From: Haliotis rubra
Lineage: Eukaryota
Direction of reading: 5' to 3'
DNA: 64,000 bases
Assembly (NCBI RefSeq): GCF_003918875.1
Contig: NW_025766625.1
Location: 1,178,001-1,242,000, forward strand
The notes beneath the pieces are model-generated. The model ran no database searches. It was given only the letters and a program-made list of their open reading frames with translations, and was not told where the DNA came from. The position numbers and the translations under genes were made by a program. Positions 3,001 through 56,664 of the stretch are shown one piece after another (the first letter of the stretch is position 1; each line of letters opens with the position of its first letter).

Positions 3001-4060
3001 AAGTCGCTTTTATATCACATTCAAGGGGCGTTGGCCTATGTTCCTTTGTAATAGATGCCCGTTGGGTATCAGCCAACACCCCACTAAACACGATTCCAAA
3101 TTCCGTGTGATAGTTTGGTTCCTTTTGAATTGACAGACGGAGGGCAGTGGGGTGAGAATCAGTCATTCCTTGGATCTGTTCATGTTCCAGATCACTGAAC
3201 AATGTTGGTTGGTTTGAGCCAATTTGTTCTTCGCACATGGAACCACTTGGATGTTGCTTCCAACATGTATAGACATTTTCATTTTCTTTTGTCACATTAG
3301 TCTTGTTTTTCCAAGTATTCACACACTGATGATCCTCATAGCCTCTGTCATAATTATGTTCGAATTCTGTTCTTTTTTGTGATGTAACAAAGAGAGATAT
3401 ATGAAAACATATCAGATTATCACTAAAGCGAAGTCGTTCTGATTTTGAAACATACCTTCCGTTATGAAATTCACTGGCTTCTTGTTTCAGATGTCTTCCT
3501 TCCTGTACACACTGCTGCACTTGTACCTTTCTGCTCCCCATACATACTGGAGATTCCCATTTAGTATGAGTTTTATCACCAGTGGTATATGATTTTCGAT
3601 TACCTGTGTCAACACCATAAACTAGAACTGTGTATTTGTCAGTCTCCACCTCATTGATTTTACTTCCTGATTTGGAATTCGGAGCATTGTAATATATGAC
3701 ATGGCTGTTAATGTACTTCTCAGTCGGCCGCTGGTTGTTTAACAACGCAAATCGTTTTTGTTGACAATGAATATAAGCAGTTCTCTCTTGGTGGATTGTA
3801 CTTTCTTGGTGAATTGTTGTTCCAGTTTGCTCGCGTTCTTGACTGGTCGGTATGTTTAGGCGTTTTAAACCGCTTACACCATATTCAGTGCTTTTCCTCG
3901 TATTTACAGGTGAAGATCCGACCTGGACAATTTCAAAATCATATATTGTTGTTTTATATAATTGCTTTTGCAATTGAGAATCTGAACATGTTCCATTTGT
4001 CTTGTTCTCAGACATGCCATTGCATGGACCATGAGACCGTTGAATATAACCGATCGTCAT
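1..4060 (-). CDS. IAP-1: baculoviral IAP repeat-containing protein (long N-terminal extension, BIR, BIR, UBA-like; 3' end outside the window). Exons 4060..1864, 1678..1503, 1252..1207, 765..658, 405..<1
   Basis: BIR1 is LRLSSF...LAAAGFYATG...CFSC-x16-H-x6-C. BIR2 is split by a phase-1 GT-AG intron (AEAGFFCAG|FSDCVRCFVCGVGLKTWEKGDNPWVEHVRWRASC). The UBA-like exon reads RALEMGYSRNCV. All hand-placed GT-AG junctions keep the frame. Confidence 0.9.
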
Positions 4061-6258
4061 TTTAGTCAGTCAGTTGACCGATTCTGCTTGGAAACATCCA
4101 ACTCTGCTCAGAGCCGTGGTCAAAGGTTGATACTGTAATTTAGAAAATAAAACATACATTATAATTCGTAAATACACATTTGATAGTGTCTCTGTCTTTT
4201 CTGTACCCGATTGGCATTTCAGTATCGTATCGCTTCAAGCGGGCGTTCCTTTATTATGGGCAACAGGTAACTATACTCGATAACGGTTGTGACAGTTCGG
4301 CTGACAAATCATGAAGTTCCCCTAAATAGGGATGGCATCATAAGTACCACTTAACCTAAGCTAGCAAAGGCAAAATATCACATTCTCCTAATTGATCAGC
4401 AGGTCTACATTTGTATGTCCCATAATATTTCTAGGTTTGTTAGCATCATATTGTGATTTAACTTGAATACTGATTGAAGTTGACTTTAACACAGCTTACT
4501 CCCATTATCAACACAAGAGTCCAACGCAAGAGACAGCACAACAATCAAAACTTCACGATGTACCTTGGTTCATATATGAAAGTTGTTGGTATATACTACC
4601 CGTCAACAGTGCAGCCACTTACTTCAGTCAACTGTTCTAAACTAGATTTTGCAAAATATTCCATACTGCTTAAAGATACTATTTACACATGATCTGATGT
4701 ATTGTAAAACAAATTCGTAACGTTGAAACGATTATTGTCATGAGTTCAATAAATGATGAAACTCAGTGAAAATTGGAGAATTCTTAACAAACTTTACACC
4801 AAACCGCAGCTGTTCACATGCAAGATATTTGCACATGCTTTTCAGCAATTTGATGCATGATCTTCGTGCAATTCATCTGCATAAGATATTCAGTTGGTTC
4901 CCCCAAGTTAGTGGGAAAATTCATCTTCCATGTAACCACACATATATACATAACGTTTAGTGGAATCCAGGACAAAATCCACCCGGACAAAATCCGTTTA
5001 GTGAGTGCTTTAAGTGAGTCTAAACTTTTGATGGGTAGTAAATGGTCGACTGGGCCTGAAAGTAGCCTTGTCTGTTAGCTGTAGTTTGTGAACTTAAATA
5101 CATAATCGTTAGAGAAAATGAAATATACTTGTAGTTACTTCGGTCAAAGAAATTGTCTGGACGTCCAAAGTACATAGTACGAAATAGAATATTAGAAAGA
5201 ATATTCGTAGCAGTTTATGATGAAATGGTTTGCAATGCCGAGGCCATTTTGGAAATTAATATCATAAGCGCTAAATTACACTTGACATAATTATCAGATT
5301 TGCTACAGACACCATGAATGTGTGGGTAGTTGTAAACCTGACTCCTTTCACATTTCTACTCGGACATTTCCATGAATTACCAACATAATTATTTATATTG
5401 TGTATAATATGGATACCCATACTGCCATAACCTAAATGTATATATCGGTATATCAGATTTCAGCAAACTGTCCGAAATTGTTGAATGGGCTTTGACACCG
5501 AGCAGTTTACTTTATCGTTACCTTGACAGCGGAGAGCAGTCACACAGTGAACCCTAGTACATCCAACATAGTGTGTCAAGTCACTACAGATTGTAATTTA
5601 ACCAACACGATGTCCTGTGTCTGTACGTGTATGTACTGTAACGTTTACATCTTCATCACTGGAAATGATGTCGCAACAATATTATGTTATTGTTATGTCC
5701 AGCCATATACATATAATTGTAAAGTCAGCAAATATTTCTGATATATCTCTTAATACCAGTATACTAGTAAACGCCCCCGCTGTGCAAATCGATTCAGTTT
5801 ATGGGGAGAGGGAAGAAACAGATAATACCGTAATAAAGACAAAATTACCTGAAGAATGTTGTTGGTTCTCATTGATTGTAGATCTTATTACATTTTCTCG
5901 CGTTCTTTGGACTTGTGGCAACGACTGAGTACAAGATAAACATTTAATATGATGAGGTGGTACATTTTAGGTTCGAGTCGGCGGTGTTGGAATGAAAATA
6001 AATGGGGAGGGGGGGGGGGGGAGTGTGTCGGCAATAAAATGAAAAGGGTCGGTCGGGCGATGAGAAACACAGAAATAAATATGCTGCCCTGACATAGACC
6101 GCGATCATAGTTTAAAACACAACTTACCCCATACGAATGAGACAGATATCCAGAACCGCTGTTTCTCCTCTGACCGAAGTAACAGGAAGTTTAGTTTCTA
6201 GATAGGAGTAAAGGGTACATTAATGATTATCAGTCACAACTCATGTCTATTTATAGTC

Positions 6259-8666: not shown

Positions 8667-8926
8667 GTATTTTTCAAAAAGTGTTTCATGCCTCAGATTG
8701 TTTATAATGACAAACTACAGAAAAATGCTTGATGATAATGTGATATATACAGTGGTAAATTATAACAGCTGTGCAATAAACGTCTGCAAATTTTGAATGA
8801 ATTGTAATTTGGAACTTTCCATAACGTCTTATTTCTTTCCACATGAATACAACTTTACTTAACATCGAAATAGTCCTGTACGTGCAATGTAATTTAAGGT
8901 TTACAATATACCTCATCTACCGGAAT

Positions 8927-9088
8927 GGGGAGGTGGGGAAGCCTAGTGGTTAAAGCGTTCGCTCGTCACATTGTAGACTCGGGTTCGATTCCCCACAAGG
9001 GTACACTGTGTGAAGACCATTTCTGGTGTCCCCCGCCGTGATATTTCTGAAATATTGTTAAATCGGCGTAAAACTAAATTCACACACC
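8927..9088 (+). mobile_element. tRNA-derived SINE family A
   Basis: GCCTAGTGGTTAAAGCG...GGGTTCGATTCCC head and shared body; about 9 copies in the window. Confidence 0.8.
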
Positions 9089-10489
9089 CATCTAGCTGAA
9101 AATTTATCTCTTAGTCCTTTTTTATTTAACTTGTGAAAGGGAACTTCCTTCAATAGTTCCGAATTTTCCTCATCAGTGCACTTAATGAATGTAACTTCTC
9201 AAATAACTTCATTCTTCTATTGAAGATTGTTTTGAAACCATCGATTTCTTGTCCCTGTATTTGCGTAATACGTGTATACTGCTTACTTGTGTTGTTTCAT
9301 TTCTAGCAGCGAGAACTTAGTCCTTCTCACAACAACTAAATTTTGTGTTCCATTTGAATGTCTCTAACTGCTTGTTGTATAATCCGCTCTAATTCTACTT
9401 CATATTTTGATTGTTCTGAGAGTTAAACCTCTGAAATCTTATACCATCTTCTGAATCTGTAATTTTACCATCTCACTTTACATTTCTTCTTAAATTGTAT
9501 TAAACATCAACCTGAGATAAATGTGATTTTTCATTAATAATAATAAATAATAATAATGAATTTTACTAAACATGCAGTCACCACTGTGTAATTTAACCAG
9601 AAACAAAGTTAAGATAACTGGATTATTCCTTTCCTCTTCCAAGTCATAACAGCAAAGATGGGAATTAACCCATTTATGCATAGGGTCTTAGATTTTCATC
9701 AAAATTTGTGAGCTGGCCATGGTTTCTTTTGGCAAGCAATGAAAGGAATGAAGTGTCATTTTACCAGTAAATACATTTTTCCATACTTTGTTACACTGCA
9801 AAAGTGCGTCTCATAAATGGGACAATATGCAGATAATAGTCCAGTAGAATTAGTCTAAAAAATCAGTGAACCTCCCAAAAATTGGTACATAAATGGTTTT
9901 GTGTTTATATCGTTTACAGTAGTATCTGAACATAAGTCCAGAAAATGGTATAAAATCTTGCAAACCATACCACTGAAGTGTACAAAATAGTAAATAATAT
10001 AAATTAAAACTGGAAAACAATTATGACATGAGGTTTGACTTAGATTTTGGACACTCCAGCACACTGGAAACAAGTAAATGAGAGTTATCGCCCCTTTGTT
10101 TACTATAGATGTAGAAGAATGGAAAGGAAAGGTTATATCTTTCATAAAGCTAGATGAGGTTATAGTTAGCCAAATAGATAAAGGGTTAAAAAGACAGCTA
10201 AAAGCTACAATTAGGAGGAGGACTGAGGTGATTCTGCTCCCATAACTAGCCCACAGAACTATATTCACTGCGGTCGTGTAACACTACGAATCTTGGTGAT
10301 AACTGGGACATTCTGTATCAAGATTTAACAGAACTTGAAAAAACATATGCCAGAATGATAGATTAGGAAATATGATACCATTTATATTTTCTATGCTATG
10401 AATTTTAAAACAATTTCAAAAGGTGATTGAAGGATACGTTTGTTCTCTTTTAACTTTAACTGGCAACTACATATTATTATGTGAGCAGA

Positions 10490-13245: not shown

Positions 13246-13918
13246 GTACTGTTAAACACGTGTTTAATGTCTTTCACTGTTCAAAATACCAAGCCACAAT
13301 AGTGTACATTTTCAATAGGAAAACTTGTTTTGTAGAATGCTAAGTTCTAAGGATGCGCAAAGAAAGTCTAACAATACTACATGTACAGTGATTTTTTTAG
13401 TATCTGTATAAAAAGTTGCTCGATCGGAATTAATGTCACCTTGAAAGGTATTGGGGTTTCATGAGGATGCATCGTGTTGCTATGGGAGAAACTATGAAAG
13501 TTACACAGATCTTAGGCATTTTCGTGTGACATTTTCAGAAACTTTTCAATATCAAAATGTGATGACATCTATCGTCCAAATGCCATTATAGTGTTTAGTC
13601 TTCTCACTTCTACATTATTACTGTATTACTTATTCTTTATTGGTTTAACTGTAGTGAAAAGTTTAACTTTGTCGAAGAGCTGTGAATCGTAGAAGAGATA
13701 GGATAATCATATTAATGATCTTCAGAAACAAGGCATGACATTAAATATAATTACCAATCAGAAACGCATACAACTCTAAGATGCAACTTATATTGTCTTA
13801 AACGGTGTCCCCATTGTCCCAAAACATGATGAATTAACCATGATAACATTCTACAATGTTGTAATGCTCATTCATATTTGTTCTTAATATCTTGGCACAT
13901 TGACATACCTCCCCGCAG

Positions 13919-14064
13919 GTTTCCTGGACAAGGTCCGATGCTTTTGCTGTGGAGTTAGGCTGAGGAAATTGGATGAAGAAGACGATCCGTGGCGGGAACA
14001 TACTCGCTTTAGCCCAAACTGCCGTTTTTTGGCAGAAAGATCTCCTGCAGATACTACACCACAG
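13919..14064 (+). CDS. IAP-2 exon: second half of BIR3
   Basis: Near-identical paralog of exon 12450..12595. Confidence 0.9.
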
Positions 14065-14190
14065 GTAATACCAACATTCATTCATGTTCATGCAACCCAA
14101 AGAAATCTTTTTCATAAAGCTGTATATGTTATTAAACAGTAAATGTTTGTTGAATACTACTTTTACAAACTCCTCAAAATGTATCTGTAG

Positions 14191-14217
14191 GTTACCGGTT
14201 CAAGTTCCAACGAGATG
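14191..14217 (+). CDS. IAP-2 last exon, 5' part (VTGSSSNEM), interrupted by the LTR element
   Basis: Acceptor at 14190; homologous to the start of exon 12726 (VTGSGSSEI); continues at 23109. Confidence 0.85.
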
Positions 14218-14539
14218 TGTCGTAACTGGCGTTTGGGTGTTAGTAAACCCTACCACCGTTACCTATTAATTATGGTCGTTCCACATTGTTCGGGGAGATG
14301 GTAGCTCTGGCGCTCCACTCGCTTGGTCCGTTGCAGGACGCTAAGTCAAGGAGTGAGGGTTCTGACGACCGTGACTCCTAATTAACCACATAACATTCAT
14401 GTACTGGCACACATACATTCAAAGATAAACGCAACACCAAGTTTATACTCACATAGTTTTTTGAGCAAAACTGCAAATCTAAATACAAATCTGATGTAAT
14501 TCTCTCACGGTTTTGGGGATGCATTTTTACCTTATAACA
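14218..14539 (-). repeat. 3' LTR (322 bp, lacking 420 bp present in the 5' LTR)
   Basis: Matches 22363..22606 joined to 23027..23104, with about 5 substitutions counted by eye. Confidence 0.92.
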
Positions 14540-14548
14540 TCCTCCGCC
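14540..14548 (-). promoter_or_regulatory. Polypurine tract GGCGGAGGA
   Basis: Purine-rich run immediately 5' of the 3' LTR on the - strand. Confidence 0.7.
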
Positions 14549-16580
14549 TGTGGACAAGAGCTGCCCACAGCTCGGATACATTAAACATGAGCACAGGTCC
14601 GATATGTTAAAGTTAAACACATTGAACACCGTCGAAGCAAAACAGGATCGGTAATTTCTGAGAGGAAATGATAACCCATTTCAAACTTTCGGAATATTCG
14701 GAAAAAGTCGAGGATACTGTACCTTAAAAACGAGCATGCCAAGGAATAAGAGAATGATCCTATGTTACTTCGGGTAACCACAAAGCATATACATCATATA
14801 TATTATGAGATGAAAACACAACAATGAATTAAAGTCAATATTAAATGTGAAAATGTCTTCAATATGGCCAAACAATGGCACCACCATTCACAAAAGTTCA
14901 TAAGTCTCTGGTCCCATCGAATAAACTGGCAAACGTCTACTGGAAAAGTCATGTTCTGAATGTCACTTGATATACACTGAACGCTGTTTACTCTGTGCGA
15001 GGCCACAACAAAATTAATGTCTGAACACAGGGCCGTGTATCACACAGCATAGTTAATTGGCTTGGTCTTCAAAGTGAGGAGACGAAATGTTCTGCACACT
15101 GCGTGAGTGAGCTCTGTAGTTTCACTGATGATGTACCCTGTTGCTTTCGCAACTTGTAGGGGGGCATCGTAGAGGTCTTGCAGTGTCTATCGTCAATACT
15201 GCGCCTTCGTGGGCGGTGTTCAGCGTCGCAACCTGGAACTTGCGATAGCGTTCGCCGGTAACAGCAAGTGTGGAGCCAGATAATCGATGTGGCGTGGACC
15301 AGACGACAGCGAGGGAGGAGCTTATCTGTTCTCCCGTCTGAATGGGGTCCGGCCATTAATCTACAACACTTGAAACAAGTGTTAAACCACGGCGAATATA
15401 ATTAGTATTATAATATACATTAGATACGACAGCAATACATGTTAAAACATGACACGCTCAAATAAATGGCAACCTGTGTACAGGTCACAGTAGACAATTA
15501 CAGCATTCTTGACTGCCGACTGCGTGCCGAATAACAATTTGAGTCCATAATGTTGCATGAATATTCTCTGATACCTATGTAGCATGGCATCAATAAATAG
15601 TAATCAAATGTTATTTTAACCATGGACGACATCTGTAATACCTGTAATAGGTTAAATAGGTGCAAGTTACTCACAACATTCAGTAAATGCTTTGCAGTTT
15701 AAAACAACAAGAACGAACAACACCGATAAATAAGGGATGGACTGAAAGTATACATTGAAACACGGATAAGAATATTTCCTAACAAGTAACATTGAAGAGA
15801 ATCCACAGTAGAATTATGTAATATAAATAACTTCCATCTATCCGTAATGTATGAGACATCAATTCCTAATACAGGTATTGTCTCTATAGAAAAGTTATAC
15901 AATATTGTCGTAAGAATGAGTATTAATATATGACTGAACATTCTCTTTGTGACTTTGTAATTATATAGGGGTTAAGAGCACGATGATCTCTACTGTTAAA
16001 ACATTTAACAAAATATTACTATAACTTTAAAACATGGAGTATTTATCGAAAACTATCGCTTTTCCAATTCTTAACCATTGTGTAGACTCAAATGGTCAAT
16101 GTACCCAAATGACAAGTGTTCTAACACTGAAAAATGACTGGTCGTTAAAAGTTTGTTGAACTCCATTATCAAGATTACGTGCTGATTTCGTCCTCTGCAC
16201 AATGCGTTTCCACGGTGACAGTCCACCATAAGATAACGGTTGAATTCGTCATCGACATAAATACACTTTGCTGCGACCGTTATATCTGGCATTTGGCGGA
16301 GAACAAAAGCTTTCTATTGCTAATAGGATAACCGGGGTCTGCCGTCTGATTTAAGGGGACGGTTGTAATGCCATAATGTTATAAAACCATAAAAACACTT
16401 GCTATAGTTGGAAGGAATTGTTTGAATTGAAACGTTTTTCCAGACATATATATATATATATATAGATGGGGTTTGAATTACCAAAATTGGGGCTATCGAA
16501 CAGTAAATAATATGTAAAGAAAACTCGTTGAATACGAAAGTTAGTCAAAAATTTGCAGCTGACAACGTGAGGTCACGGGT

Positions 16581-18704
16581 TCAGAGATAAAATTGTGGCA
16601 GAACAATCTCATGACAAGAATTCGTCAAATGTAAAACTAAGGTCGTAACCGGTCGATTGAACTTTTTTACTCTGCGAAGAAGTAAAATAAACACCAGAAA
16701 TACTGTCGATATGATGAGGAAAACATCCATTGAAATAGTTGATTTAATCAAAGACATAAAAGATGGCTGGGGATAGTTCGGAGGGGTGGTTGTGTGGTAT
16801 GCTTTCCAATCTATCAAACCATTAGTCGGGGAACCTGCTGTAAGTAACGTTAAAGCAAAAAATAGGCGTCTAACTTTTAACCATAAATACATAACCAGTA
16901 TAAATAGAAATAAGGACAAACCTGCGGCAAAACTAGCCGTTAAATGTTAGGGCTTGGTTAAGGACCCATCCAAAGCAGACGATGGAAGGGAATTCATCCA
17001 ATTATCTTCAATTAAATTATCCGAAATCACTTGTGCCTTTTTCATACGCTTGGAAATAAGGCGTAAATCAACTTGAAATTTATTTTCCTTTTTCCGAATG
17101 TCATCGAAAACTTTATAATCGATTAATAAATGTGGAATTTTGAACGCAGAATCTTCTAAAAGAAGCCGTAAAGTTTCGTAAGGTTTCAGTACGGATGAAT
17201 TGAAAAATTCCGATAAGAGTAGAAGATTGGGTGGATACAATTTTGAAGTTGTTGACTTTTTTTCACAGTGATGAATTCTCATGTCTATGTCGAATTCATC
17301 CAGTTTCAACGCACAGTGGCAAGGAATTTTAAATATACAAATCTGACAAGCTGGACGCTTCTCAATGCGACCCTTGCAAGTTAATATAATAGTTTTTATG
17401 CCACTGAGCAAAACAAGGCCTGGTTCGATTTCGAGAGCCATCGAACGAAGCCCTTTTAATCTAAATTTAACATCACACAAGGATTTAATTCCTGGTGCGT
17501 CCTGATCAAGCAGAGCAAGTGCGCAGGTGAGAACCAGTGTTTGGTTTGGCGCTAAGAAAAATTGGGCAATGTTTTTTGTGTTCACCAAAACATGTTTGAA
17601 AATCCCTGGTAGAAAATTCAATATACTGATCTTTCGCTTCCGAAACTGCCAAATAATCAGGTAAATTCATAACCTGAGTGACGTGTGAACTTGATTGATT
17701 AATTGGTAGGCCAAATGAATTGATTCGATATACCTCGAGGAGAGTTGAATGAGTCTGGAAAGGAACAATGAGTGAAATTAAAATTGAATCTCCAGTTCTA
17801 GAACAATGAACAGTGCGTTCCCGATAATAATAGCCTGGATCCTTGTGAGCAACGTGAAACAACGGATATTCTGCGTTTAGACGTTTTTGAATCATATTTA
17901 GGGCCTTCTTTACTTCCGTAACTGGGAGCAAAGATGGACTCAAACGTTGGTTAACTAATTGCTGTATTCCAAGATACATTTCATCAATTTCCTGTCGAAT
18001 AGTCGTCAAAAATGTCAGACGATCTAGCAAAATTTTCATAGAAATGAAAATACTTTTTTCTACGTCTTGTACCTGTTCGGCGACCTGAGAAATGTCCCTA
18101 TGATTCGTTTCAATACCTGTTAGAGAGGAAGAAATACGGTCATTGGTTTTAGCTATAAATGACGACATCTGACGAACTTGCACTTGTACAACGCGAGAAG
18201 TATTAGTTACATGCATTGATAATCGTTTGACATACTGCGCCAGCCGTTCTACATCTTCGACTGTAGCAGTACCAAAAATTGAACGACTAATGGATCCGAT
18301 AAATGGAAGGATTGCCCGTCTCGTGCGTGAATCCTTTTGAAAAGTGTTAACATGCGGAATTAATATTTTAATGTCCTTACTGACATTCGTCCAATACACG
18401 AGCAATTCTTGTTCCGCTTTCTTTATATATCCATCTATAGCATTCACAGAATAACAATGTAACGCGTGCGTTTTACAAAACTGTTGGTAATCTGGTCTAT
18501 TACCCATTTCAGACAAATCTGGCAATTTATACTTGAATACATGGATCCATTTATTTTGTGAAATGTCGATACGTGACGTATGGATAAATACAACTCCCCA
18601 TGGAAGTCGTAATTCTGTATGGACAGAATTAACTTGATTCTGGATGATGACAAGCGCCATCAGCGTGAACAAGACCCAAACTGGTCGAAGGAGACTCCTG
18701 GATT
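16581..18704 (-). pseudogene. env: env: class I viral fusion glycoprotein (gypsy-Env/baculovirus-F-like); frameshift near 17530 and an in-frame TAA at 16947..16949 before the TM segment
   Basis: Signal-peptide-like SRSLLRPVWVLFTLMALVIIQ, furin site RTRR followed by fusion peptide AILPFIGSISRSIFGTAT, heptad repeat, QRLSPSLL motif, Cys-rich region, TM GLSLFLFILVMYLWL and a second TM VFLIISTVFLVFILLL. Confidence 0.85.
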
Positions 18705-19830
18705 CTAAAATTCAAAGAACGGGATTATGAACATAAAATAGAAACTTGAAATGAAATCATATACGTCATCAATATTCTTAGGAAAAGTTTCCATCACTGT
18801 AAAACTGCATTCATATGACGTCTTCTCCTGTCAATTGAAACTGACTGTATTAAACATATGATAACAATTGTCACATGCAGGTAATGGTAGTTTCACACTA
18901 GTATTCGTGCGAATAAACAACATTCAACAATAGTAGTAAATTCTCATCAACCTGTTTCATCAGAAGATTTCTCACCACGGAACATATATGTATTGGTACG
19001 GTATAACCATTGAACACTGAATTCTCTTGACTTCCTTTCGAGTCATGTAACTGTAATTCATTGTTCGTCATCGTATTTCATTGAATACCATTGTATTTGT
19101 ATATATATCGTATCATCATCGTCAGATCTCTTTGGATCGTAGTTCATTTCTTTTTCTCGTATATACACGCATAGCGAAACGCTTTGTAATGGTCCGCGAA
19201 TATGTACAACGTCCCTTTTGGACAGCGCGACCTGTAACCTTCCCGTAGAAGTAGTATGAATATGCATAACCTGACCCAAACATTTTGGTCAGTAACCCGG
19301 GAATGTATTCTTCAAGTAGTAATACGAAATGTGACCCAAACCTTTGCAGCGTTTGGTCACTAACCCGTGAATATGAATATATTTTTCAATATCAACCAAC
19401 ACGTGACTGTATGCAGTTGAAGTATTCTGAATATATTCAACAAGACATTTGACAAGAAACAATACACAGTTCAACATATATGCACACTTCTATTTCCTTG
19501 TAACCTGGTGACAATTGCATCATGTAACATCGTAAAGGATGATCTATAGCGTGGGCTAGCACCATGCGTATAGCATCATATAGTGATAATCCTGAAATAA
19601 AACACATGCAAAAATCAATTTGTGGGTGATCAGTCCTCAGCATGATATTTGCAGTGTCGTAACTAAAAAGGTAACGCTTTATAACAATTTGTCAGAAACA
19701 ATATTTCAAATATTTTGTTAAAAATTCTAACGCTTTCGTTTCTCATTTAACGACTGCAGTATCATATAATCATAGGTCTCCTTCAGGGATTTTGGATTCG
19801 TGATTATCTGTAACCACATGTAAAGTGCAG

Positions 19831-21063
19831 TTACCTCATGTAAAGTGCAGTTCTCCTAGTAAATCCTGTAGTATTTCTTTCCACTGAGTATTCTACGCTC
19901 GCATCCATTTTGCTATACAAAGTATTCCTGTATATCCAAGGTGACTTTTTATGCCTGTCCGATGTTAACGGCTTGGAAATGGGGGTTATGATGTCTGTAT
20001 CCGTACCAGATTTATGCAATTTATTAATTTGATTGTAATGACCGACAACTGGAAATGGGTTAGTTGGCCTGTGTCTGTGGTTGACAAACCGCCTAAGCCG
20101 TTTAGCATGACCAGGAACTTTCAGTCGTTTACGATTGTCATAACGTGGTCGTTTGCACGTACACGGTGGCAATTGATTGGACGCGTCATATTGTCTGTGT
20201 GATGTGGAGTAATCTCCTGTCGGGACAGCGGTTACTCTAAGTGAGCTGTCATCATACAAATCTGATGACAAATCTGTTGTGATTGGAATCGATATTTGGT
20301 TGTTGTTATCCGACTGGGGAAGACCACTGTCTGAATTCGGTGAACATTCTGAATACGGAAAGCTTGACAGAATCTCTGTGGGATGCCAGTGTTTGCCCGG
20401 TCGATACTGAACTGTAAAACCTAGGCAGTGTTCCTTTTTTGATGGGGGAGCAATTGTGACATTTTGCCGCGAGCAAGCAGGAATGTGTTCTGACTCCGTG
20501 GGGATTGATTGTTTACCAGCAACAGGTGGTAATAAAGTACCATTCGCCCTCATTGGAACAACTGTTGAACCATTCTGAATAGCCAAAGTATAAGATTGAA
20601 AATTCATGACAGTCTTTTGACTTATCAAGAAATCTAATCCTAAAATCATGGGAGACTCAAAATTTGCAACAACTAGAAAACATTGTTCTGTTTGAAAATC
20701 ACCAATAGTGATGGAAAGTACAACTTGTCCTAATACTGGCATTATATTTTGACTTATCCCTTGAATAGATGGCACATCTGACTTTTCAATAGGGATTTTT
20801 TTCCATAGGCCTGAATCATTGAAAACTTCTAGGCTTAAAACACTAGAACCAGCGCCTGAATCTACAATTGTTGGAACTAACTTTTCTCCCAAAACAACAT
20901 GAATTGTATTAAGCCTGTTGTCGCTTTCAAATGTAGTCTGCGAAAAGTTAGATTTTGGCTGGTTGTAACGAGGAGAATTACAAGCTTGTGGTTTCAAATA
21001 AGTATGGTCAACCGTTTGTTCAGCACAATGGGAAAATTTCCTGCGTGGTCTTGACTGTAATTG
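19831..21063 (-). CDS. pro: Retropepsin (aspartic protease) ORF in frame with gag; remnant pol with RNase H and integrase C-terminal stubs only
   Basis: IVDSGAGSSVL active site and ILGLDFL motif, FTVQYRPGK (RNase H end), VPGHAKRLRRF (integrase C-terminus). No YxDD or DDE core. Confidence 0.85.
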   Translation of the reverse strand, partial: QLQSRPRRKFSHCAEQTVDHTYLKPQACNSPRYNQPKSNFSQTTFESDNRLNTIHVVLGEKLVPTIVDSGAGSSVLSLEVFNDSGLWKKIPIEKSDVPSIQGISQNIMPVLGQVVLSITIGDFQTEQCFLVVANFESPMILGLDFLISQKTVMNFQSYTLAIQNGSTVVPMRANGTLLPPVAGKQSIPTESEHIPACSRQNVTIAPPSKKEHCLGFTVQYRPGKHWHPTEILSSFPYSECSPNSDSGLPQSDNNNQISIPITTDLSSDLYDDSSLRVTAVPTGDYSTSHRQYDASNQLPPCTCKRPRYDNRKRLKVPGHAKRLRRFVNHRHRPTNPFPVVGHYNQINKLHKSGTDTDIITPISKPLTSDRHKKSPWIYRNTLYSKMDASVEYSVERNTTGFTRRTALYMR

Positions 21064-22185
21064 CTATCTGCTAGTTCGGTAACCTGACTGGTACCTAGCC
21101 CTGCATACTCGTTGAAAATGTCCTATCTTGTGACAAAAATGGCTCTGAATATTCCGTGCGGGACAAAAATCAGAATGAGAAAAATCGTACTCACCACCGC
21201 ATCTGTAACACTGCCTTCCACGGGCCATGTTGTCTCCTTGAATGGGGTCTGTCCATTGAGGAGTGGGCTGCCACGGTTGATCTGTATACCTGGATTGTCT
21301 GGGGAACTGGGGACGTTGATTCTGTCGGGACTCATAAGTATTGATCTGTGACGATACCGGAGCGAGTTTTGCCGAAAGTTCAACAATCTGTAATCTCAGC
21401 GTATCTATTGCTAGCATAACGTTTGTACTGTCTTCAGACTGGGGAATGACCGATCTAGCCAGTCGCGCAAATGAAACTGCCTCGTTTAGCACATTTGGTT
21501 GTTTCATTAACACATGTCGCCTGGTATTGTCATCCAGTCCCCTAACGAAGGCGTCCATTACATCTGCATCTGTTTTTCCTAACAGGCTAGCCGTCTCAGT
21601 CAAGTCCGCCAAATAAGTATCTATAGATTCTGTAGAGGATAGCTTTCGACTGACAAAAGTTTCCAAAAGGGCCCAACGGTCAGTAGGATGGACATACTTG
21701 TCCTTGAACAATTTCTCAATCTCATCAAAACGGACTATTTCTTCCTCTGCCGATTCTATCAAATCTTTGTACCATAGATACGCCGCGTCCTTTAAAAACA
21801 GTGGGAAAACTTCAATTTTCTGTGCATCAGTCCACCTTTTAAAGTTATCAAAATGAGCAAAACGGTCAAGCCACTCGGCAGAATGAAACGTGTCCCTACC
21901 TGTGAAATGTTCTGGCATTAAAGTGGAATCGCCCATATTGAAGTCAGGTGCAGAATAAGAACTATTGGTAGATGACAAATCTAAAGAGGAAAATGAGAAT
22001 TCTAAATCCTCCTGAGAAAGAGATAGGGAGAGGTCATTGGGAGCAGATGGAGGTTGAGACGTTGACGTGGGTTGTTGTATTATGCCAAGTCGGGTTGGAT
22101 TAGTAAAAATGTTAGAAGTGATGGGACGAGATTGGACCAGACTGTCATAGGACGTAGATGAATCTGAATCATTTCCACGAGGCAT
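21064..22185 (-). CDS. gag: Gag (retrotransposon capsid domain plus Zn knuckles)
   Basis: PEHFTG...WLDRF...FPLFLKDAAYLWY capsid motif, FVRGL, and CYRCG..H...C plus a degenerate SHFCHKIGHFQRVC knuckle. Confidence 0.92.
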   Translation of the reverse strand: MPRGNDSDSSTSYDSLVQSRPITSNIFTNPTRLGIIQQPTSTSQPPSAPNDLSLSLSQEDLEFSFSSLDLSSTNSSYSAPDFNMGDSTLMPEHFTGRDTFHSAEWLDRFAHFDNFKRWTDAQKIEVFPLFLKDAAYLWYKDLIESAEEEIVRFDEIEKLFKDKYVHPTDRWALLETFVSRKLSSTESIDTYLADLTETASLLGKTDADVMDAFVRGLDDNTRRHVLMKQPNVLNEAVSFARLARSVIPQSEDSTNVMLAIDTLRLQIVELSAKLAPVSSQINTYESRQNQRPQFPRQSRYTDQPWQPTPQWTDPIQGDNMARGRQCYRCGGEYDFSHSDFCPARNIQSHFCHKIGHFQRVCRARYQSGYRTSR

Positions 22186-22346
22186 TACAAAAATTCAAAA
22201 TATCCTGAGGGAAAACTGCAGATAACATATCCCAGCCGCGAAAAGGGAACCTACCGTCAAACGTCAATGCAAGGGAACAAAAGGGTAGGAACGACCATAA
22301 GGAAAACAGCGAAATGGATCGTCTTAAACATTTTGTTCAAGAAGAA

Positions 22347-22362
22347 CCCGCAGACTCCACCA
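22347..22362 (-). promoter_or_regulatory. Primer binding site TGGTGGAGTCTGCGGG (tRNA-Ala-like)
   Basis: Starts with TGG directly after the 5' LTR and resembles the complement of the eukaryotic tRNA-Ala 3' end. Confidence 0.7.
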
Positions 22363-23104
22363 TGTCGTAACTGGCGTTTGGGTGTTAGTAAACCCTACCA
22401 CCGTTACCTATTAATTATGGTCGTTTCACATTGTTCGGGGAGATGGTAGCTCTGGCGCTCCACTCGCTTGGTCCGTTGCAGGACGCTAAGTCAAGGAGTG
22501 AGGGTTCTGACGACCGTGACTCCTAATTAACCACATAACATTCATGTACTGGCACACATACATTCAAAGATAAACGCAACCCCAAGTTTACACTCACATA
22601 GTTTTTACTCAGTCTCAGTCCATCTCTCTAACTACAACTTCAACATCAGACAAGGCAGGTTCGTACCACACGGGGCAACTGAGTGGCGTGAACTGGCTTC
22701 CGTCACTAAAAAGCGCGCACCACTCGCTCAGTGCCCAACCTGTCTTTTTATATGGTTCGAGCCTGGCCTGATCTTGATCACATGTTTGAACTAATCATTT
22801 TGATTCGGTTAGCCTGTATCCGACCTTGCACTCATGAATATTACGATTGGAAAAGTACCGGTAAGAATCGTTCGGTTACTCATCCCTTTGTTGTTTGTTT
22901 CAATGTAAGATTAATCTGTTATGTCTTTCAACAGAATGTGTTCTGTCTCTCTTTCCATAGCCTACGGCTAAACGCCATTCTATGGAAACTTTCCGTCTCC
23001 ATACCGTGCCTAACCGTTATGACTCATGAGCAAAACTGCAAATCTAAATACGAATCTGATGTAATTCTCTCACGGTTTGGGGGATGCATTTTTACCTTAT
23101 AACA
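22363..23104 (-). repeat. 5' LTR (742 bp) with TATAAAAA at 22752..22745
   Basis: TGTTATAAG...TTACGACA on the - strand, homologous to the 3' LTR. Confidence 0.92.
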
Positions 23105-23105
23105 G

Positions 23106-23351
23106 ATGCAACCTCAAAGAGCAACTACGAAACGCGACGAAGAAATCCATGGCAGAAGAGAGTCCAGATTGTGTAAGATCTGTCTGGAGGACCCCGCCAA
23201 CATCGTCTTCCTCCCCTGTGGACACCTGGTTGCCTGTGCCTTGTGTGCCCCAGCTCTGGAGCGTTGTCCAATCTGCAGAAAACACATCCAGGGAACTGCC
23301 CGTGCCTGTAAAGCCGATATGGCGTCTCGACAGAAACGTACTAACTGTTAA
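23106..23351 (+). CDS. IAP-2 last exon, 3' part: C-terminal C3HC4 RING separated by the LTR insertion
   Basis: CKICLEDPANIVFLPCGHLVACALCAPALERCPIC; joins 14191..14217 in frame when the element and one TSD are removed. Confidence 0.9.
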   Translation: MQPQRATTKRDEEIHGRRESRLCKICLEDPANIVFLPCGHLVACALCAPALERCPICRKHIQGTARACKADMASRQKRTNC

Positions 23352-24450: not shown

Positions 24451-24830
24451 TTGTTGTTTAACGCCACACTCAGCAATATGACACCAGTATGACGACTGTC
24501 TGTTCATAATCTACTCTTGACCTTTCAGCCCAGTGATTGACACCATGAGCATCGTAATGCGCAGTTTGTATATAAGCTTGGGACGGTGGGGTAGCCTAGC
24601 CCTTAAAGCGCTCGCTCGTCACGCCGTAAACCCGGGTTCGATTTCCCACACGGGTACAATGTGTGAAACCCATTTCTGGTGTTCCCCATCGTAATATTGC
24701 TGGAATATTGCTAAAAGTGGTGTAAAACCAGACAGTCAGACAAAGTATATATACCACGACATGCAACAGCCAAGTCAGCGAGCCAGATCATCCGATGCCG
24801 TCTGTCACAGAAGACCAATTCTAACTGGTC
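24451..24830. mobile_element. SINE family B (- strand) with SINE family A (+, 24580..24742) nested inside
   Basis: The two halves of family B flank a complete family A copy. Confidence 0.65.
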
Positions 24831-25029: not shown

Positions 25030-25680
25030 ATGTATGGCATATCGACAGAGCATACTTTCTGTCTGACATATCAACTGAGCATACCTTTTGTGTCTGGTAT
25101 ACACACAGTTCAAACTGTGTCTGGTACATCATCAGAGCATAATTCCTGTGTCGTGCATACCAACAGAACACGCAGTATCTGGCATATTAACATATGTCTT
25201 CGGTGACTGTCATATCAACAGAGCATACCTTCTATGTCTGGCATATCAACAGAGCATACTGGCATGTCCACGGAGCAAATCTCCTGTGTCTAGCATATTA
25301 ACAGAGCATACTTTCTGTGTTCTGGCTTATCAACAGAGTACGTTGTAACTGGCATATACACAAACCCATACTCACTGTGTCTGGCATATCAACAGAGCAT
25401 TTGTTCTGTGACTGGCATATCAACAGAGCATATGTTTTGTCTGGCATGTCCACAGAGCATCCTTCCAGTGTCTGGAATATCAACAGAGCATTGTTTCAGT
25501 GTCTGGCATATCAACAGAGCATTCTTCCAGTGTCTGGCATATCAACGGGGCATTCTTCCAGTATCTGGCATATCAACAGAGCATAGTTTCAGTGTCTGGC
25601 ATATCAACAGAGCATACTTTTAGCGTTTGGCATATCAGCAGATCGCTCTTTCTGTATCTTGTATATCAATAGAGCTCTAC
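25030..25680. repeat. About 31-bp minisatellite (CATATCAACAGAGCAT...TGTCTGG)
   Basis: Directly visible; same family as 38200..40920. Confidence 0.9.
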
Positions 25681-26017
25681 TGTCTGCATCTAAATGTGGC
25701 ACAACAGCAATCTCTCTGGTTACATCCGAACCTGTCACAATTTGGGGCACATGTTATATCTTCATAAGCATTTTATACACGTGCGTTGTCAGTGACAGTG
25801 GGAAATTACATAATCACAAAGCGTGATCAAATCAACAACGTATTTTAATCCTTGGTAGGATTGCAGATGTGCACGTACATTTGTACCACATACTCATACA
25901 TACACATTGCACATGTCGCGTTCATAAAAATATGTTTGTATTTCCTCGATAATTCTGATCATTTTGATGTTCTTTATTAGTGTAAAAGTATCTGAAACTC
26001 GAAAAAACATCGGTCAC

Positions 26018-29529: not shown

Positions 29530-31005
29530 TTTTTTATTCAAATATATATGTTCGATCAAATTATTTTCTCGGTTATTTGGCAATGAAAGTTTACCTTTCA
29601 AAATACAGTTTTATCGAATGTGATCATTCACACGTATACGTTCGATGAATTCTATTTTCTCGGTAAATTGGCCATAAAAAACTACCTTTCACAAATCTAA
29701 TTCCAACATCCATCAGACAACCATCATTATGATACAGTGAATATTCTTTTCGAATATTACTACTTACGTGAACACGTTCGATGAAATGTATTTTCTTGGT
29801 TTATAAGCCATAAAAATTTACCTTTCAAAAATCCACTTTCAATATCCGTCATAAAATCATCATTATGATATAGTGAATAGTTTTATCGAAAATTATTATT
29901 CACATGTATGCATACGTTCGAGGAAATATATTTTCTCGGTTAATTGGCCATAAACAAATTACCTTTGTAAATCCACATTAATGATACAGTGAATAGTTTT
30001 ATCGAATATTACTGTTCACATGTATACGTTCGATGAACTAATTTTCTCGGTTTATTGGCCCAAAAATGTACCCTTCAAAAATTCCAATTTCAATATCCTT
30101 CAGACAATCATCATTATGATACAGTGAATAGTTTTATTTAATATTACTATTCACATGTATACTTTCGATGAAATGTATTTTCTCAGTTGATTGGCCATAC
30201 AAAATTACCTTTCAAAAATCTTATTTAAATAACCTTTACAAAAACACCATTAGTGATACTGTGAATAGTTTTATTTAACATTTCTATTCACATGTATACT
30301 TTCGATGAAATGTATTTTCTCAGTTGATTGGCCATACAAAATTACCTTTCAAAAATCTTATTTAAATAACCTTTACAAAAACACCATTAGTGAAACTGTG
30401 AATAGTTTTATTTAACATTACTATTCACATGTATACTTTCGATGAAATGTATTTTCTCAGTTGATTGGCCATACAAAATTACCTTTCAAAAATCTTATTT
30501 AAATAACCTTTACAAAAACACCATTAGTGATACTGTGAATAGTTTTATTTAACATCACTATTCACATGTATACTTTCGATGAAATGTATTTTCTCAGTTG
30601 ATTGGCCATACAAAATTACCTTTCAAAAATCTTATTTAAATAACCTTTACAAAAACACCATTAGTGATACTGTGAATAGCTTTATTTAACATTACTATTC
30701 ACATGTATACTTTCGATGAAATGTATTTTCTCAGTTGATTGGCCATACAAAATTACCTTTCAAAAATCTTATTAAATATCCTTTACAAAAACAGCAAAAA
30801 TGATACAGTAAATAATTTTATTTAATATTACTATTCACATGTATACTTTCAATGAAAAGTATTTTCTCAGTTGATTGGCCATACAAAATTACCTTTCAAA
30901 AATCTTATTTAAATATCCTTTACAAAAACACCAATATTGATACAGTGAATAGTTTTGTTTAATATTACTATTCACATGTATACTTTCGATGAAATGTATT
31001 TTCAA
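29530..31005. repeat. 137-bp satellite array (about 10-11 copies)
   Basis: TCTCAGTTGATTGGCC recurs at 30181, 30318, 30455 and 30592. Confidence 0.9.
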
Positions 31006-33585
31006 AAATGGTCACCAAACAGGAACAACGTCCGACCTCCAAACGTCTCCACAGCAGTTCTTTTTACAGGTCGACATGTTTGGTATTTTTTACAAAAAAT
31101 ATATGCATCATTTAGGCTCCTCAAAAGCAAAACACTCTATTCTTTGACGTGCTGTGGTCACTACATCACCCCATGACTAATAAACTATAGTAATTTGAAA
31201 AAATACTGTTTTTAACATCTTTTGAGATGGCATACACATAATAATTATATTATTGAAAGTTGACAATACTCCTTAAGAAGTGAGCTAACTATTCGTCATC
31301 TGAGTCTGTTGTGAGTTTGTGCTTAAAATATATATACCCGAAATACCAGGTGTGTAATGAGCAGTACCTGTCACTAGGATTTCACTCCAGTGTGCGCTAG
31401 TGACGTTTGAGGCGGCATCACATCAGATACATCGATTTCCTTGTGTCTTTCGAAACTTTCGAATTCAATTTAACAACAAGGAGGTTGTAATAAACTGACC
31501 AGCAATAAAAACGTAATTCAGAATTCATTAAAATTATACTTTTTCAGCATGAGTTTGGATTTAATACTTTAACAAAATTGTTTTGATTTCTGAAATTGTG
31601 TTTCTTTTACTGGTCAGTATATGTATCTAGATGAGTGTGACTTTTCCCCTTTTAACACAGCGAAGATTACAGGGTGGTACGGGCTCAACCATGATTTGAA
31701 CATTTTAGCTTGTTCGAAGAGGCGTCTAAGGAGATCAGACTGTCATTGTATTCAAACTGTATAGATCGATGATCACGATTTCAATCACAAGTCTGTCTAG
31801 CCAAGACTCAAATATTTACTGACCCCCTCCATATGGCTGAAACATACACAAAATTTTCCTTTCATCATTTTCGTAGTACGGTGGGTAAAACTAGTAATAA
31901 CACTCCTGCAATCTTCCGCCTTGATATTGCTGAAAGGGGCCTAACTTCACACTCGCTCATTTACGTGAACATGTCTGTAATTATATCTACATCTGGAAGT
32001 AAATACCGCGATCTTATTTGTTTGCGGCTTTCAAAATTGACTAGTACTAGTAGGACTAAGGGGTGTCTGTATATTCTCTGCTATCTAAATATCAGTGATA
32101 CCCACATACATGTTTGTGCTGATGTATCATCCAGATTTGCTGTTTAGGGAAGTTTAGTTCCACTTTTAGTTTCATAAGTATCCACCACAGTAGTTATCTC
32201 ACTCGATAATGAGTGACTTTATGTTGTGGAGTGTTGTCACATGAAAGCATTGACATCTTCGACGTGAAACTGTACGCCTATTGAGTGTTTGCATGATCCC
32301 AACAATGATATCCCGACGTGGCAAATGTAGCAACATTTATTTGTTTCATTTTCTGTTTAGTTGAGTTTTTAAATGCTCTTTTGTTCCTTTTCTTCATTAT
32401 ATAATACGCGTTATTTAGAATAAGAAAAGCAGAAACATTGTCAGCAGTTGAAAGCTTCACCTCTTTTAGTCTAATTTTCATTATCGTGTCGAGAAGATGG
32501 GTTTCCTTTTAATCTAAGGCACTGTGTTGCTTAGACCCAACATCCGCAGATTCAATTTGTAGCTGTGGTCTGTCGAAGTTCTTTTCTTGAGTTTCCATCC
32601 AACCAACATTTATAATTTCCTGGCCAATTCTTGTGATCATACTATGCTGTGATGTAACCGAAATACTTTTGAGATAGACAATCGGAAAATTATCCCTGAA
32701 CATGATTTTGGCTACCGAACTGGCAAACAGCGAAGGCCTCACTTGAATCAGACACAACACATTTTCCACCATTTGTATGTAGACGTGCGTCTTTTCTTAT
32801 CTTTAGTTAAACTTATTTTTGTTCTTGCTTTTTCGCACAATAGTCGCAGGTATACCTGTAAATCACAGCATATTATTTTCAGATTTCAGTGTAGGCCTAT
32901 TAATAATACAAGTCTAGATCTAATTCCAAGCTATGCTAATTACTATATGTTGTACATAATATATTCAGTCCCAGCATGTTTCTTAGCTGGTGAAATTAAA
33001 TGTGTGTATTTGTTCGTATTAAATTCTGTATATCTGATAATTACTATGTATTTTTAGATTTAGAACAACTTTAAGACTTTTCGTTTTTTGCGTTTACCTT
33101 TTTACCTTTAGTGTGTAAAATATATAGATGTAATTCTTAATTTTTTTTCGCTAATCTGCTTGATGATGATGACCCAGATAACCTTGTTTTGTTTGGAAGT
33201 AAAAAATATTACCTTTCCGTTTTGGGGCAACGTGCATACGCACGTGAGTACTACGTCTTAAATAGCATAGTATTTGTTCCAGGAAACAAACACATTTAAA
33301 CTAATTTTCTTATCTCGAGAAAAAACGTAAATTACATTACAGTACTCACGTATTTACCTAGGTATATCTGGTATCTGGTGCATAATATTTTTGGAATTTG
33401 TCTTGCTTTTATTCATTAATGCTTAATAATGAACAATGTTTATTCCGTTTCTGTAATATTGTTTGACTGTATCTGTTACGGTATTAAATAAAATATTCTT
33501 ATACAATTATAATATATGTTTGAAGAGTAATTATGTTTCGCCAAAGAAGAGGTTTTGAAATTTTGTACGAAGTGTGAATATTTAG

Positions 33586-36700: not shown

Positions 36701-38199
36701 AGACTGTCCTAAAAATAGGTCAGTTTGGCTGTTTTATTGTCGTGACTTAAACAATGTGATCGATCATCTTACAGTAACTTGCTGGGTTTTTCAATCGTCG
36801 CATAGCAACAGTTCTTAATATTGGAACAAACAAACACTTGTGTGAATGGCGTTTGCTGCCAGGAAAGCAGGCCCTGTTATTCTTCTCGACAACATCTGTT
36901 GACATTAATCATTATTCCATTATTCAAATAAATTGATTTATAATTTTGGCTGTAACGCGCTTTCTATTTTGCATTTACAGGCATAAGTTTTGGCCATTTC
37001 GTTAGTGACAAGGAATTGGAAGAAGATGGTTGTTTAACATATTGTTATTTTATATTCACACTACATGATAGCGACCTGTAAATATTCGTGTTTGGACTAG
37101 ACAGACTTGTGACTGGCAGTGAGATGAATCCACGCCGTCATCGTACGATGACACGCTCAGAACAAAGTGATCTGGCGTGACCACTCGATCCACTAAATTC
37201 ACACGGTGTTCATATTTCGCCCCGATTTCCAACTCTTTCGGAGACAAATCCGTGCTCGTGCTTTTTTTTTTGTAAGTGGTAAACGTCTGAGATCTGCATT
37301 GCGGGTGTTCATCCTAAAGTCAGTTGACACACCATGATGTAAGTGAAAAATTGTTAAAGGCTGCGCTTAACTCAGCTCACACACATCGTAATACTCGATT
37401 ATATAGAGAATGTCACCAAAGTGTCTACTGATATCAGTTACAAATAGTTACAAATATGAGTGTTGATATATTTGTTATCAGTAGACACGAGGGTGAGATT
37501 CTATTTATCATCGAAAACCACTCTTCATTATTTTTCAATGAAAAATGTACATCTCTGAACACGGTACTATCATTAGACTTGCAGGGCGGCCATGCCATAG
37601 CATTGTGACGTTTTCAAGTTCATGACGTCATAGCATTGTCAAGGCATTGTACAAAACCTACTGTCAAAACGATATCTCGTTTGATCTCGCACAAGCAATA
37701 TCTCCTGTGGAACACTGTTTTGGATGAAAACTTCATATTTGAATTGCTTGCATATTGTGACAAACAAATCAGTCACTGTTGTTTGTATTTGTTTTTTATG
37801 TTTGTTTTTTGTTGGTTTTTTTGTTTGTTTCTTTTTAGGGGGGATGTGGGGGATGTGGAGAGGGGTTACTAACCTAGTAATTGTCTGACTATATGAGGGG
37901 GGTCTGTTCATAATAGAGTGTGGACAAGACAAGTGACTGAGACCATCAGCATCGATTTACTCAGTTGGTATACCACGCCATGCATCAGCCAAACCCGTCA
38001 GTCAACTCTTGAGACGAATAGTGGAACACCAATTCCAACCCGTATCGTCACAGACTATTCTGGTAGGTTAGGGGTCGGGTTATCCATCCCTTCGAAAAGA
38101 AAACTGTCACAAGAAAAGAAAGTGCAGAGTTTATTTGCTAGAGCTACATAATACATGTCCAAGATAGTACTGCGAGCCTAAGAATAGGGTGTCAACTTT

Positions 38200-40920: not shown

Positions 40921-41297
40921 GAAGCCGATTTCTGTTATCCCCCGCCGTGATGTTGCTAGAATATTGCTAAAAGCGGCGTCAAACCAAACTCACTCACTCA
41001 CTCACTCAACAGAGCATACTTTTTTTTAGCTTCCCTTAAATTTCCAAGCTTCATAGCTTTAAAATTTGCTTTATACTTTTGCTTCAGCAGCTGTATCCCT
41101 ATGTTCAGGGTTCATGTCTCGTGCTCGGTATGTAAATTTCACTTTGTCAATTACGTAATATTTACATTCCCTAAACGTCATGCTTTTGTACACGTATTAG
41201 GAAGCAACGTAGCATATATTAACATAAAACTACTAAAGGCAGCTGAAGCATACATAAGTAGATAAGGATGTCATCCGGAATGTTTGGCGTTACTTGG

Positions 41298-45005: not shown

Positions 45006-45161
45006 GGGGGATGGTGGGGCAGCCTAGTGGTTAAAGCGTTCGCTCGTCACGCCAAAGACATGGGTTCCCCACATGGATACAATATGTGAAGCCCACTTCT
45101 GGTGTCGCCTGCCGCGATATTGCTGGAATAGTGCTAAGAACGGCGTAAAACCATACTCACA
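45006..45161 (+). mobile_element. tRNA-derived SINE family A
   Basis: TSD CTTCCAAAG. Confidence 0.8.
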
Positions 45162-46730: not shown

Positions 46731-47109
46731 ATGGTGATATTCATGACCTTATGCTGTAAGAGGAATCTGTTATTAAAAATGTTCCTAAACCAGTAACCAC
46801 GGTTATAACGAGATTTTATGAAATTATAAAACTTCTGACGATACACTTTCTGTAACATGTAAACCTGCATACATACGAGCAGTGTGGTACTAATGATACA
46901 GTATTGCCGTAGCAATAACAAATAATACTGGAATCCGACATAATTTTATTAGCTAAAAGAGCTTTAGAATTGACAAAAATGTTATAAAACAGAAGCACAT
47001 AACTAGTGTCCACAATACAATATATAATGTTCTCTTAATTAAATGGGAATTTGACGTTCCCGTTTGATCCCAACTTAGTAACACAGATTGACAGCACTGT
47101 TACTTTATA

Positions 47110-56337: not shown

Positions 56338-56664
56338 CATTGGGCGTAGAAGGAAGTAGTGGTGAAATAACTGAAAATCAGTAATGACGGCATAATCAGC
56401 ATGCTCCGCCTGAGCACTCTCATATTTGAATTAGAATAAGTACTTGTTTGTTTGATAACAAACGACTCACAGCAATACCGTTGCCACAAAAATGCGTTGT
56501 AAGCCGTCGAGTCTTGTCCAGACAACCAAGTGAAACAATGACGCATTTACTGATTATAGTTTAATTCGAGGGCTGTGTAAAATAAATCAGCATTTATAAT
56601 TTACAATGTATGTGTTGTCACTGAAAAGGACAGTCCAATTCGCCATCTCTCACTTCTAGTTGAC

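Follow-up and report, generated by a model that had tools for sequence, protein, structure and literature searches.

A CARYYA-type stop context between gag and protease in a Ty3/gypsy element of Haliotis rubra: a candidate junction for programmed readthrough

The DNA analysed here is a stretch of 64,000 nucleotides from Haliotis rubra (NCBI RefSeq assembly GCF_003918875.1, contig NW_025766625.1, positions 1,178,001 to 1,242,000 of the forward strand), called the window in what follows. On its minus strand, from 23104 to 14218, it carries a long terminal repeat (LTR) retroelement in which gag and a protease open reading frame (ORF) are separated by one in-frame TAG followed by CAA TTA, and the expression of this junction is the subject of the present work. 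From 5′ to 3′ the element has a 742-bp 5′ LTR, a stretch resembling a primer-binding site, gag, the TAG, a second ORF (ORF2), about 1.1 kb of non-coding DNA, an env-like gene, a long 3′ region, a purine tract and the 3′ LTR. It is a non-autonomous LTR-gag-TAG-pro-env derivative with the following features, in which L-numbers designate loci and L077 belongs to an autonomous sister family presented below.

23105-23108, minus strand: target-site duplication CATC, 5′ side
22363-23104, minus strand: 5′ LTR (TG...CA, 742 bp); the LTR matches of L031, L039 and L040 reach up to 23104
22345-22362, minus strand: stretch resembling a primer-binding site, beginning with TGG and adjoining the 5′ LTR, from the sequence
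21064-22185, minus strand: gag ORF from the first ATG (22185) to the TAG; Pfam Retrotrans_gag (E 1.6e-10) and Ty3_capsid (E 5.9e-9)
21103-21144, minus strand: CCHC zinc knuckle, 12 codons before the stop, from the translation
21058-21066, minus strand: gag stop TAG (21066-21064) and CAA TTA (21063-21058), a CARYYA context, from the sequence and its conservation across copies
19831-21063, minus strand: ORF2, 410 codons in the gag frame with no Met before codon 108, from the ORF translation
20608-20904, minus strand: aspartic protease domain, ORF2 residues 54-152, with DSG at 20862-20854; Pfam Asp_protease_2, gag-asp_proteas and RVP
19993-20418, minus strand: in-frame pol remnants, namely the RNase H end with linker (L077 Pol 766-874) and a piece from behind the integrase core (Pol 1246-1307), from blastp and the L077 Pol domain map
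16581-18711, minus strand: env-like (F-type) gene in three ORFs, 18711-17506, 17666-16947 (other frame) and 16946-16581, from likeness to the L077 env
14540-14549, minus strand: purine-rich tract adjoining the 3′ LTR, from the sequence
14218-14539, minus strand: 3′ LTR with an internal deletion near 14462-14468, from LTR comparison
14214-14217, minus strand: target-site duplication CATC, 3′ side

The TG...CA ends of the LTRs, the target-site duplication, the primer-binding site and the polypurine tract are those of a Ty3/gypsy LTR element. The gag frame is open from stop to stop over 376 codons (22194-21064). Comparison by blastp showed that ORF2 matches residues 1-207, 766-874 and 1246-1307 of the L077 Pol, fused in frame; the window element has lost the reverse transcriptase (RT), the integrase core and most of RNase H. 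Of the 30 loci described below, 16 were read over 10 kb, and no ORF with an RT motif was found in any of these family copies. The pol order protease-RT-RNase H-integrase is therefore missing from the window copy and from 16/16 family copies and present in the autonomous sister family, which makes the window element a deleted derivative. The first piece of the env-like gene and the L077 env are 82% identical, and the latter matches Pfam Baculo_F (E 6.8e-8); the window pieces gave no Pfam env match of their own. Through this likeness to L077 the element has an F-type env behind pol, as in errantiviruses; in the window copy it is broken. The 244 bp shared by the two LTRs differ at 3 positions, and the insertion is therefore young. 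Imperfect short repeats at 19230-19380, in the non-coding gap between ORF2 and env, vary in copy number among contigs.

The reverse complement of 21058-21066 is TAGCAATTA, with AGA directly before and CAG directly after it, the minus strand reading AGA TAG CAA TTA CAG from 21069 to 21055. As the original prediction had stated, the TAG lies in frame between gag and the 410-codon protease ORF, which share one frame, and domains were matched on both sides; its count of 22 open codons was wrong, the frame being open for all 410 codons from the base after the stop and 20997 marking only the first in-frame TTG (codon 23). The hexamer directly 3′ of the stop is a CAR-YYA of the tobacco mosaic virus (TMV) type, and the downstream frame is continuous without an AUG of its own, as expected of this type. 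Codon 68 (20862) encodes the catalytic Asp, and Met is first reached at codon 108; no Met stands ahead of the catalytic Asp in the window ORF2, where the in-frame near-cognate codons are ACG at codon 17 and TTG at codons 23 and 58, nor is there an AUG in this part of L077-L079. From the base composition of the element a CARYYA is expected by chance 1 time in 448, and on both strands of the window it follows 5 of 1396 TAG triplets. One CARYYA at a site specified beforehand is thus unlikely by chance, and its conservation across families is the stronger evidence.

A −1 frameshift was rejected, since the two frames are equal and the sole run resembling X XXY YYZ lies out of phase, 27 bases beyond the first base of the stop; no slippery heptamer was found within 90 bases 5′ of the stop. 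No stable fold was found at +1 to +60 either (z +0.5 for the window, +1.9 for L077, −0.5 for L078 and −0.1 for L079). A 3′ hairpin in the CARYYA family was accordingly rejected, none being present in these four folded junctions, which fits a signal made of sequence only. The arrangement of murine leukaemia virus (MuLV), a G after the UAG, an 8-base spacer and a 3′ structure, is not that of the window junction, which starts with CAA and has no stable fold.

We then compared the copies of the element. A DNA search gave 40 matches, from which 30 loci were fetched, and the junction could be aligned in 27 of them including the window: the stop is TAG in 25 and TAA in 2, and a sense codon in none. 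CAATTA follows in 24/27 and the full TAG CAATTA is present in 22/27; L030 stops short of the junction site. The copies form two subfamilies with a common layout and LTRs about 78% identical, between which the ratio of nonsynonymous to synonymous divergence (dN/dS) of gag is about 0.2.

A search with the protease led to a sister family of about 60% identity with the organisation gag-TAG-pol-env, whose Pol contains protease, RT, RNase H, integrase and chromodomain and is open for up to 1395 codons behind the stop. TAG CAA YYA was found in 11 of its 12 loci (7 TTA and 4 TCA), the junction of the twelfth, L076, not being located; the TTA/TCA difference changes Leu to Ser and keeps YYA. Between the window family and this sister family the 21 bases before the stop are identical at 7-8/21 positions, the stop and the following six bases at 8-9/9 and the next 21 bases at 13-16/21. 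Over the 50 codons that follow the stop, synonymous divergence (dS) reaches 1.1-1.8 or saturation, and the protease has a dN/dS of 0.22-0.29 between the families and 0.12 within the autonomous one. The motif is thus kept across the family boundary, within one lineage, while nearby synonymous sites have diverged. The conservation across copies that had been proposed as a check is found in both families, and a sense codon at the stop, which had been named as a refutation, occurs in 0/27 window-family loci and at 0/11 located sister junctions, variation across the boundary staying within CARYYA. As the window copy belongs to a deleted, non-autonomous family, its signal is a legacy of a gag-TAG-pol element, in which it would govern the Gag:Gag-Pol ratio.

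The same variation bears on two other routes: splicing could produce a pol or pro RNA without the stop, as happens in foamy viruses, or the UAG could be edited in the RNA. Neither gives a reason for changes behind the stop to stay within CARYYA. The TAG could formally serve as a 3′ splice acceptor, and in other retroelements the Gag:Pol ratio is set by splicing (PMC2194720), but the 20 bases before it are only 35-55% pyrimidine in the four folded CARYYA junctions. Two contigs, X1 (20919-21921) and X2 (20916-21213), from runs that were only guessed to be RNA, are colinear across the junction, and none of the joints listed for contigs of such runs falls there, although contigs of this kind carry no information on strand, expression level or editing. 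We consider splicing or editing very improbable.

The analysis was extended to 60 loci around protease matches (of 150 scored), which formed 16 clusters at 70% identity. In-frame gag stops are the rule in this lineage, being present in at least one copy of 14/16 clusters; one cluster is of −1 type (L092, L130) and one is unclear, and the clusters of L111 and L135 were called from frame and context, with no knuckle matched. Ten clusters have TAG G.. at this place and G-C/T-A/G-CCTG from +7; in L125 a TGA precedes the same arrangement. The 11 representatives (L081, L083, L088, L089, L093, L104, L105, L109, L119 and L135 for TAG, L125 for TGA) have a stem from +9 after an 8-base spacer, with a folding z ≤ −2.6 in 8/11; the +9 pair is G-C in 9 and A-T in 2, and the +13 pair G-C in 9, C-G in 1 and broken in 1. 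This stem of the TAG-G families is of the GCCTG/CAGGC type with compensatory pairs, its 3′ arm having been chosen as the best complement, which biases the comparison toward pairing. In two further clusters gag ends in frame with pol at TGA CTA CAA (L091, L132) and at TGA TGC CAG (L095, L134, also L304). As a control, 20 further loci from an RT search were inspected: directly before the gag stop 6 had GGGAAAC or TTTAAAC and 2 had GGAAAAC, so that 8/20 exhibited the usual −1 frameshift layout. More distant families thus carry −1 slippery sites, and the original prediction, which gave frameshifting or a single ORF as the mode of most Ty3/gypsy elements, needs the amendment that in the lineage of the window element in-frame gag stops prevail.

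At the homologous site of two TAG-G clusters, sister subfamilies carry a sense codon instead of the stop, and gag runs on into pol without interruption: the residue is Tyr in L082, L084, L090 and L123, Lys in L087, L096, L113, L114, L126 and L136, and Trp in L118. A fusion across the site is therefore a viable reading frame. These subfamilies are multi-copy, and no env match was obtained in the 10-kb stretches of L082, L084, L087, L090 and L096. Such continuous frames in other clusters are what one would expect if the TAG were a nonsense mutation in a once-continuous gag-pol, with CAATTA behind it by chance. That explanation is refuted by a stop common to both non-autonomous subfamilies and the autonomous family, by the long open Pol behind it in the latter and by the 1 in 448 context, and we give it practically no weight. 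A separate start of the downstream frame, by a promoter within the junction or at a non-AUG codon (ACG 17, TTG 23 or 58), could make use of the near-cognate codons that precede the catalytic Asp, and Tca2 has a junction promoter (PMC2194720). Neither the window nor L077-L079 has an AUG ahead of the protease active site, and a start of this kind would leave without reason both the single gag and pol frame of 14/16 clusters and the conserved, known readthrough contexts, and we see only a slight chance for it.

Two quick trees were built, which disagree on L092. In the RT-RNase H tree the families with in-frame stops were grouped apart from most frameshifters (SH-aLRT 97); in the RT-only tree this group had SH-aLRT 83 and contained the frameshifter L092 on a long branch. 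L309 (TAG GAT, in frame in 1/2 copies) and the metagenome locus L143 (TGA CTA G) were placed among the frameshifters, which suggests separate origins. The CARYYA family is a single long branch whose placement among the TAG-G families is ambiguous, so the tree gives no order of signal changes. A further 160 loci were taken from outside the genome, on metagenome and viral contigs. In 63 of them the RT frame held no protease, 41 were cut off by the contig end, 23 consisted of a single ORF, 28 were arranged otherwise and 5 were in-frame candidates. Two of these candidates had a knuckle, L143 with TGA CTA G and L234 with TGA CTG; in L143 a gag of 672 open codons with the knuckle is followed by TGA CTA G and then pol, and its RT is 40% identical to that of L077. 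A single-sequence scan of viral contigs gave nothing. Among the 120 of 493 database relatives of Pol that were listed, Pinctada and Mytilus included, Pol starts at Met.

Taken together, these results make programmed readthrough at the gag TAG the best reading of the junction, and one in which we have high confidence; the occurrence of other recognised readthrough contexts at the homologous site in related families was counted in its favour. The junction is real and conserved, and it is probably functional. In a Ty3/gypsy lineage with chromodomain and env, gag would be programmed to end at the TAG, where most ribosomes would terminate and release Gag. The CAA-YYA, acting through its primary sequence alone and without a 3′ structure, would weaken termination so that a near-cognate tRNA decodes the UAG in a minority of events. 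By analogy the readthrough rate may be 5-15%, and between a few and about 15% of ribosomes would presumably insert an amino acid and continue in frame. The product would be Gag-Pol in the autonomous family and Gag-protease with a short relic tail in the window family, which may be mobilised in trans by the autonomous one. For the Gag:protease ratio of the original prediction, this conservation supports a ratio set by programmed readthrough; the ratio would originally have been that of Gag to Gag-Pol and not only of Gag to protease.

Several observations weigh against this reading. All CARYYA cases come from one lineage in one genome, and no CARYYA junction was present in the 160 outside loci, of which only 33 had an RT-frame protease and a visible upstream stop. 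L026 and L027, two diverged copies, have in common a loss of the TAG through small indels, and to the two TAA loci are added three of the 27 with an altered hexamer. Within the window family column variation at the stop is not below that of the flanks, and since the motif is no more conserved than its surroundings the 27 loci show inheritance and not selection. The protease dN/dS between the non-autonomous subfamilies, 0.65-1.0 on few changes, does not by itself indicate purifying selection, and the open-frame and indel tests given below used copies chosen for an open ORF2. Context alone can also mislead: Tca2, which has a suggestive stop context, gave no readthrough in a yeast reporter (PMC2194720).

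Some of these points would suit a related explanation, in which the autonomous family does use readthrough but the deleted family of the window carries motif and protease along as passengers; in the latter only Gag (and Env) would matter, all enzymes being supplied in trans. The protease dN/dS, the TAG loss common to L026 and L027 and the lack of RT and integrase in all 16 copies examined agree with it. Against it, copies of both subfamilies have an ORF2 that is open for 358-410 codons, and the 163 substitutions between them produced no stop where neutrality would predict 6.2 (P(0) = 0.002); the indels of ORF2 are multiples of three in 3/3 cases versus 3/13 in the following non-coding stretch; dN/dS is about 0.4 in ORF2 codons 166-300; and the catalytic DSG is kept. 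The evidence for selection inside the non-autonomous family thus appears mixed, and we regard the passenger explanation as unlikely but deserving of attention. The protease (window 20569-20913) exhibited a synonymous divergence of 0.05-0.10 between these subfamilies, compared to 0.2-0.4 in gag and the ORF2 tail, which may reflect either recombination between the subfamilies or a constraint at the RNA level.

Readthrough at the TAG can be placed in a wider scheme, toward which we lean slightly. An env-bearing chromodomain Ty3/gypsy lineage would have replaced −1 frameshifting by readthrough and swapped UAG-CARYYA, UAG-G with an 8-base spacer and hairpin, and UGA-CUA at the homologous site, and a gag-pro-env satellite would have retained CARYYA so as to make Gag, protease and Env itself, with RT and integrase taken from other elements. 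If so, a plant-virus CARYYA signal sits at an animal retroelement gag-pol junction, and invertebrate env-bearing retrotransposons of a large group catalogued not long ago, whose recoding the literature searched does not describe, would ordinarily express Pol by readthrough. The three classes of readthrough signal would then occur at one homologous site within a single genome, together with natural sense-codon variants, which makes signal replacement directly testable. Annotation pipelines would take such elements for broken. Kamikaze of Bombyx and Skipper of Dictyostelium are reportedly further gag-stop cases, and if the context of Kamikaze were CARYYA an invertebrate precedent would exist. 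The stop context of SIRE1, a soybean sirevirus, is likewise said to resemble CARYYA.

That some retrotransposons place an in-frame stop after gag is well established. That UAG-CAR-YYA is the leaky context of TMV, as had been proposed for this junction, is borne out by published work: CARYYA after the UAG is essential for TMV readthrough (PMC2754532, also PMC2194720), is active in yeast and human cells (PMC2194720) and in a mammalian reporter allowed readthrough of about 15%, UGA behaving about like UAG (PMC4132726). The TMV replicase stop has the identical nine bases UAG CAA UUA and needs no 3′ structure (PMC2754532, PMC2194720), and none was found here; TMV is, however, a plant RNA virus whose extension is an RNA polymerase, whereas the present case is an animal gag-pol junction read from sequence only. 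Closer in organisation are the fission-yeast Ty3/gypsy elements Tj1, Tcry1 and Tosmo1-3, which have a chromodomain, an in-frame gag-pol stop and no pol AUG (PMC4600332, PMC10085805); the stop is needed for activity in Tj1 (PMC4600332) and in Tosmo/Tcry has the form TGA-CT (PMC10085805). These elements, with their TGA-CT, are fungal and lack env, in contrast to the TAG-CAA-YYA and F-type env found here. MuLV, with about 5% gag-pol readthrough (PMC2194720), also has a UAG between gag and pro in an env-bearing genome, and the TAG-G families share with it the stem at +9 after an 8-base spacer. It differs in requiring a purine-rich spacer and pseudoknot, neither of which the window's family has, and the RT, RNase H and chromodomain of the autonomous sister are of Ty3/gypsy type. 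SIRE1 uses stop-codon suppression between two ORFs (PMC2194720, PMC2829016), but it is a plant Ty1/copia element with the stop between pol and env. A stop between gag and pol or pro is present in Tca2 of Candida (PMC2194720) and in the candidate RIRE2 of rice (PMC2754532). A 2003 survey, as summarised in PMC5009743, found −1 frames in 28/51 animal elements.

A clade of errantiviruses with chromodomain and F-type env has been described in Cnidaria, Mollusca and Annelida within a catalogue of 1,512 elements (PMC13524379). Like these, the present lineage has gag-pol-env, an F-type env and, in the autonomous sister, a chromodomain after the integrase. The catalogue does not treat pol expression, the terms read-through and frameshift being absent from its text and readthrough and stop from seven supplements. 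Passage searches of PMC13172572, PMC8310308, PMC4402516 and PMC1142308 gave nothing on this point, and in a search mainly of the open literature, with older key surveys and RepBase outside it, no report was found of CARYYA at the gag-pol junction of an env-bearing animal Ty3/gypsy element.

The surroundings of the element were also inspected. A 757-codon ORF at 1796-4069 on the minus strand contains two BIR (inhibitor of apoptosis, IAP) stretches, and a short frame at 13888-14142 on the plus strand, beside the 3′ LTR, has a Cys/His pattern that we take to be BIR-like; a cluster of IAP genes may thus surround the element. Tandem arrays with 31-base units are found at 25049-25702, 38176-40856 and 46003-46790, and others at 29607-31074 (137-base unit), 61128-61875 (40-44 bases) and 62124-63970 (21 bases). 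A dispersed short repeat with a tRNA-like head, which we presume to be a short interspersed element (SINE), occurs on both strands at 8916-9099, 24569-24752, 40913-41008, 44997-45175, 56654-56837 and 57487-57884.

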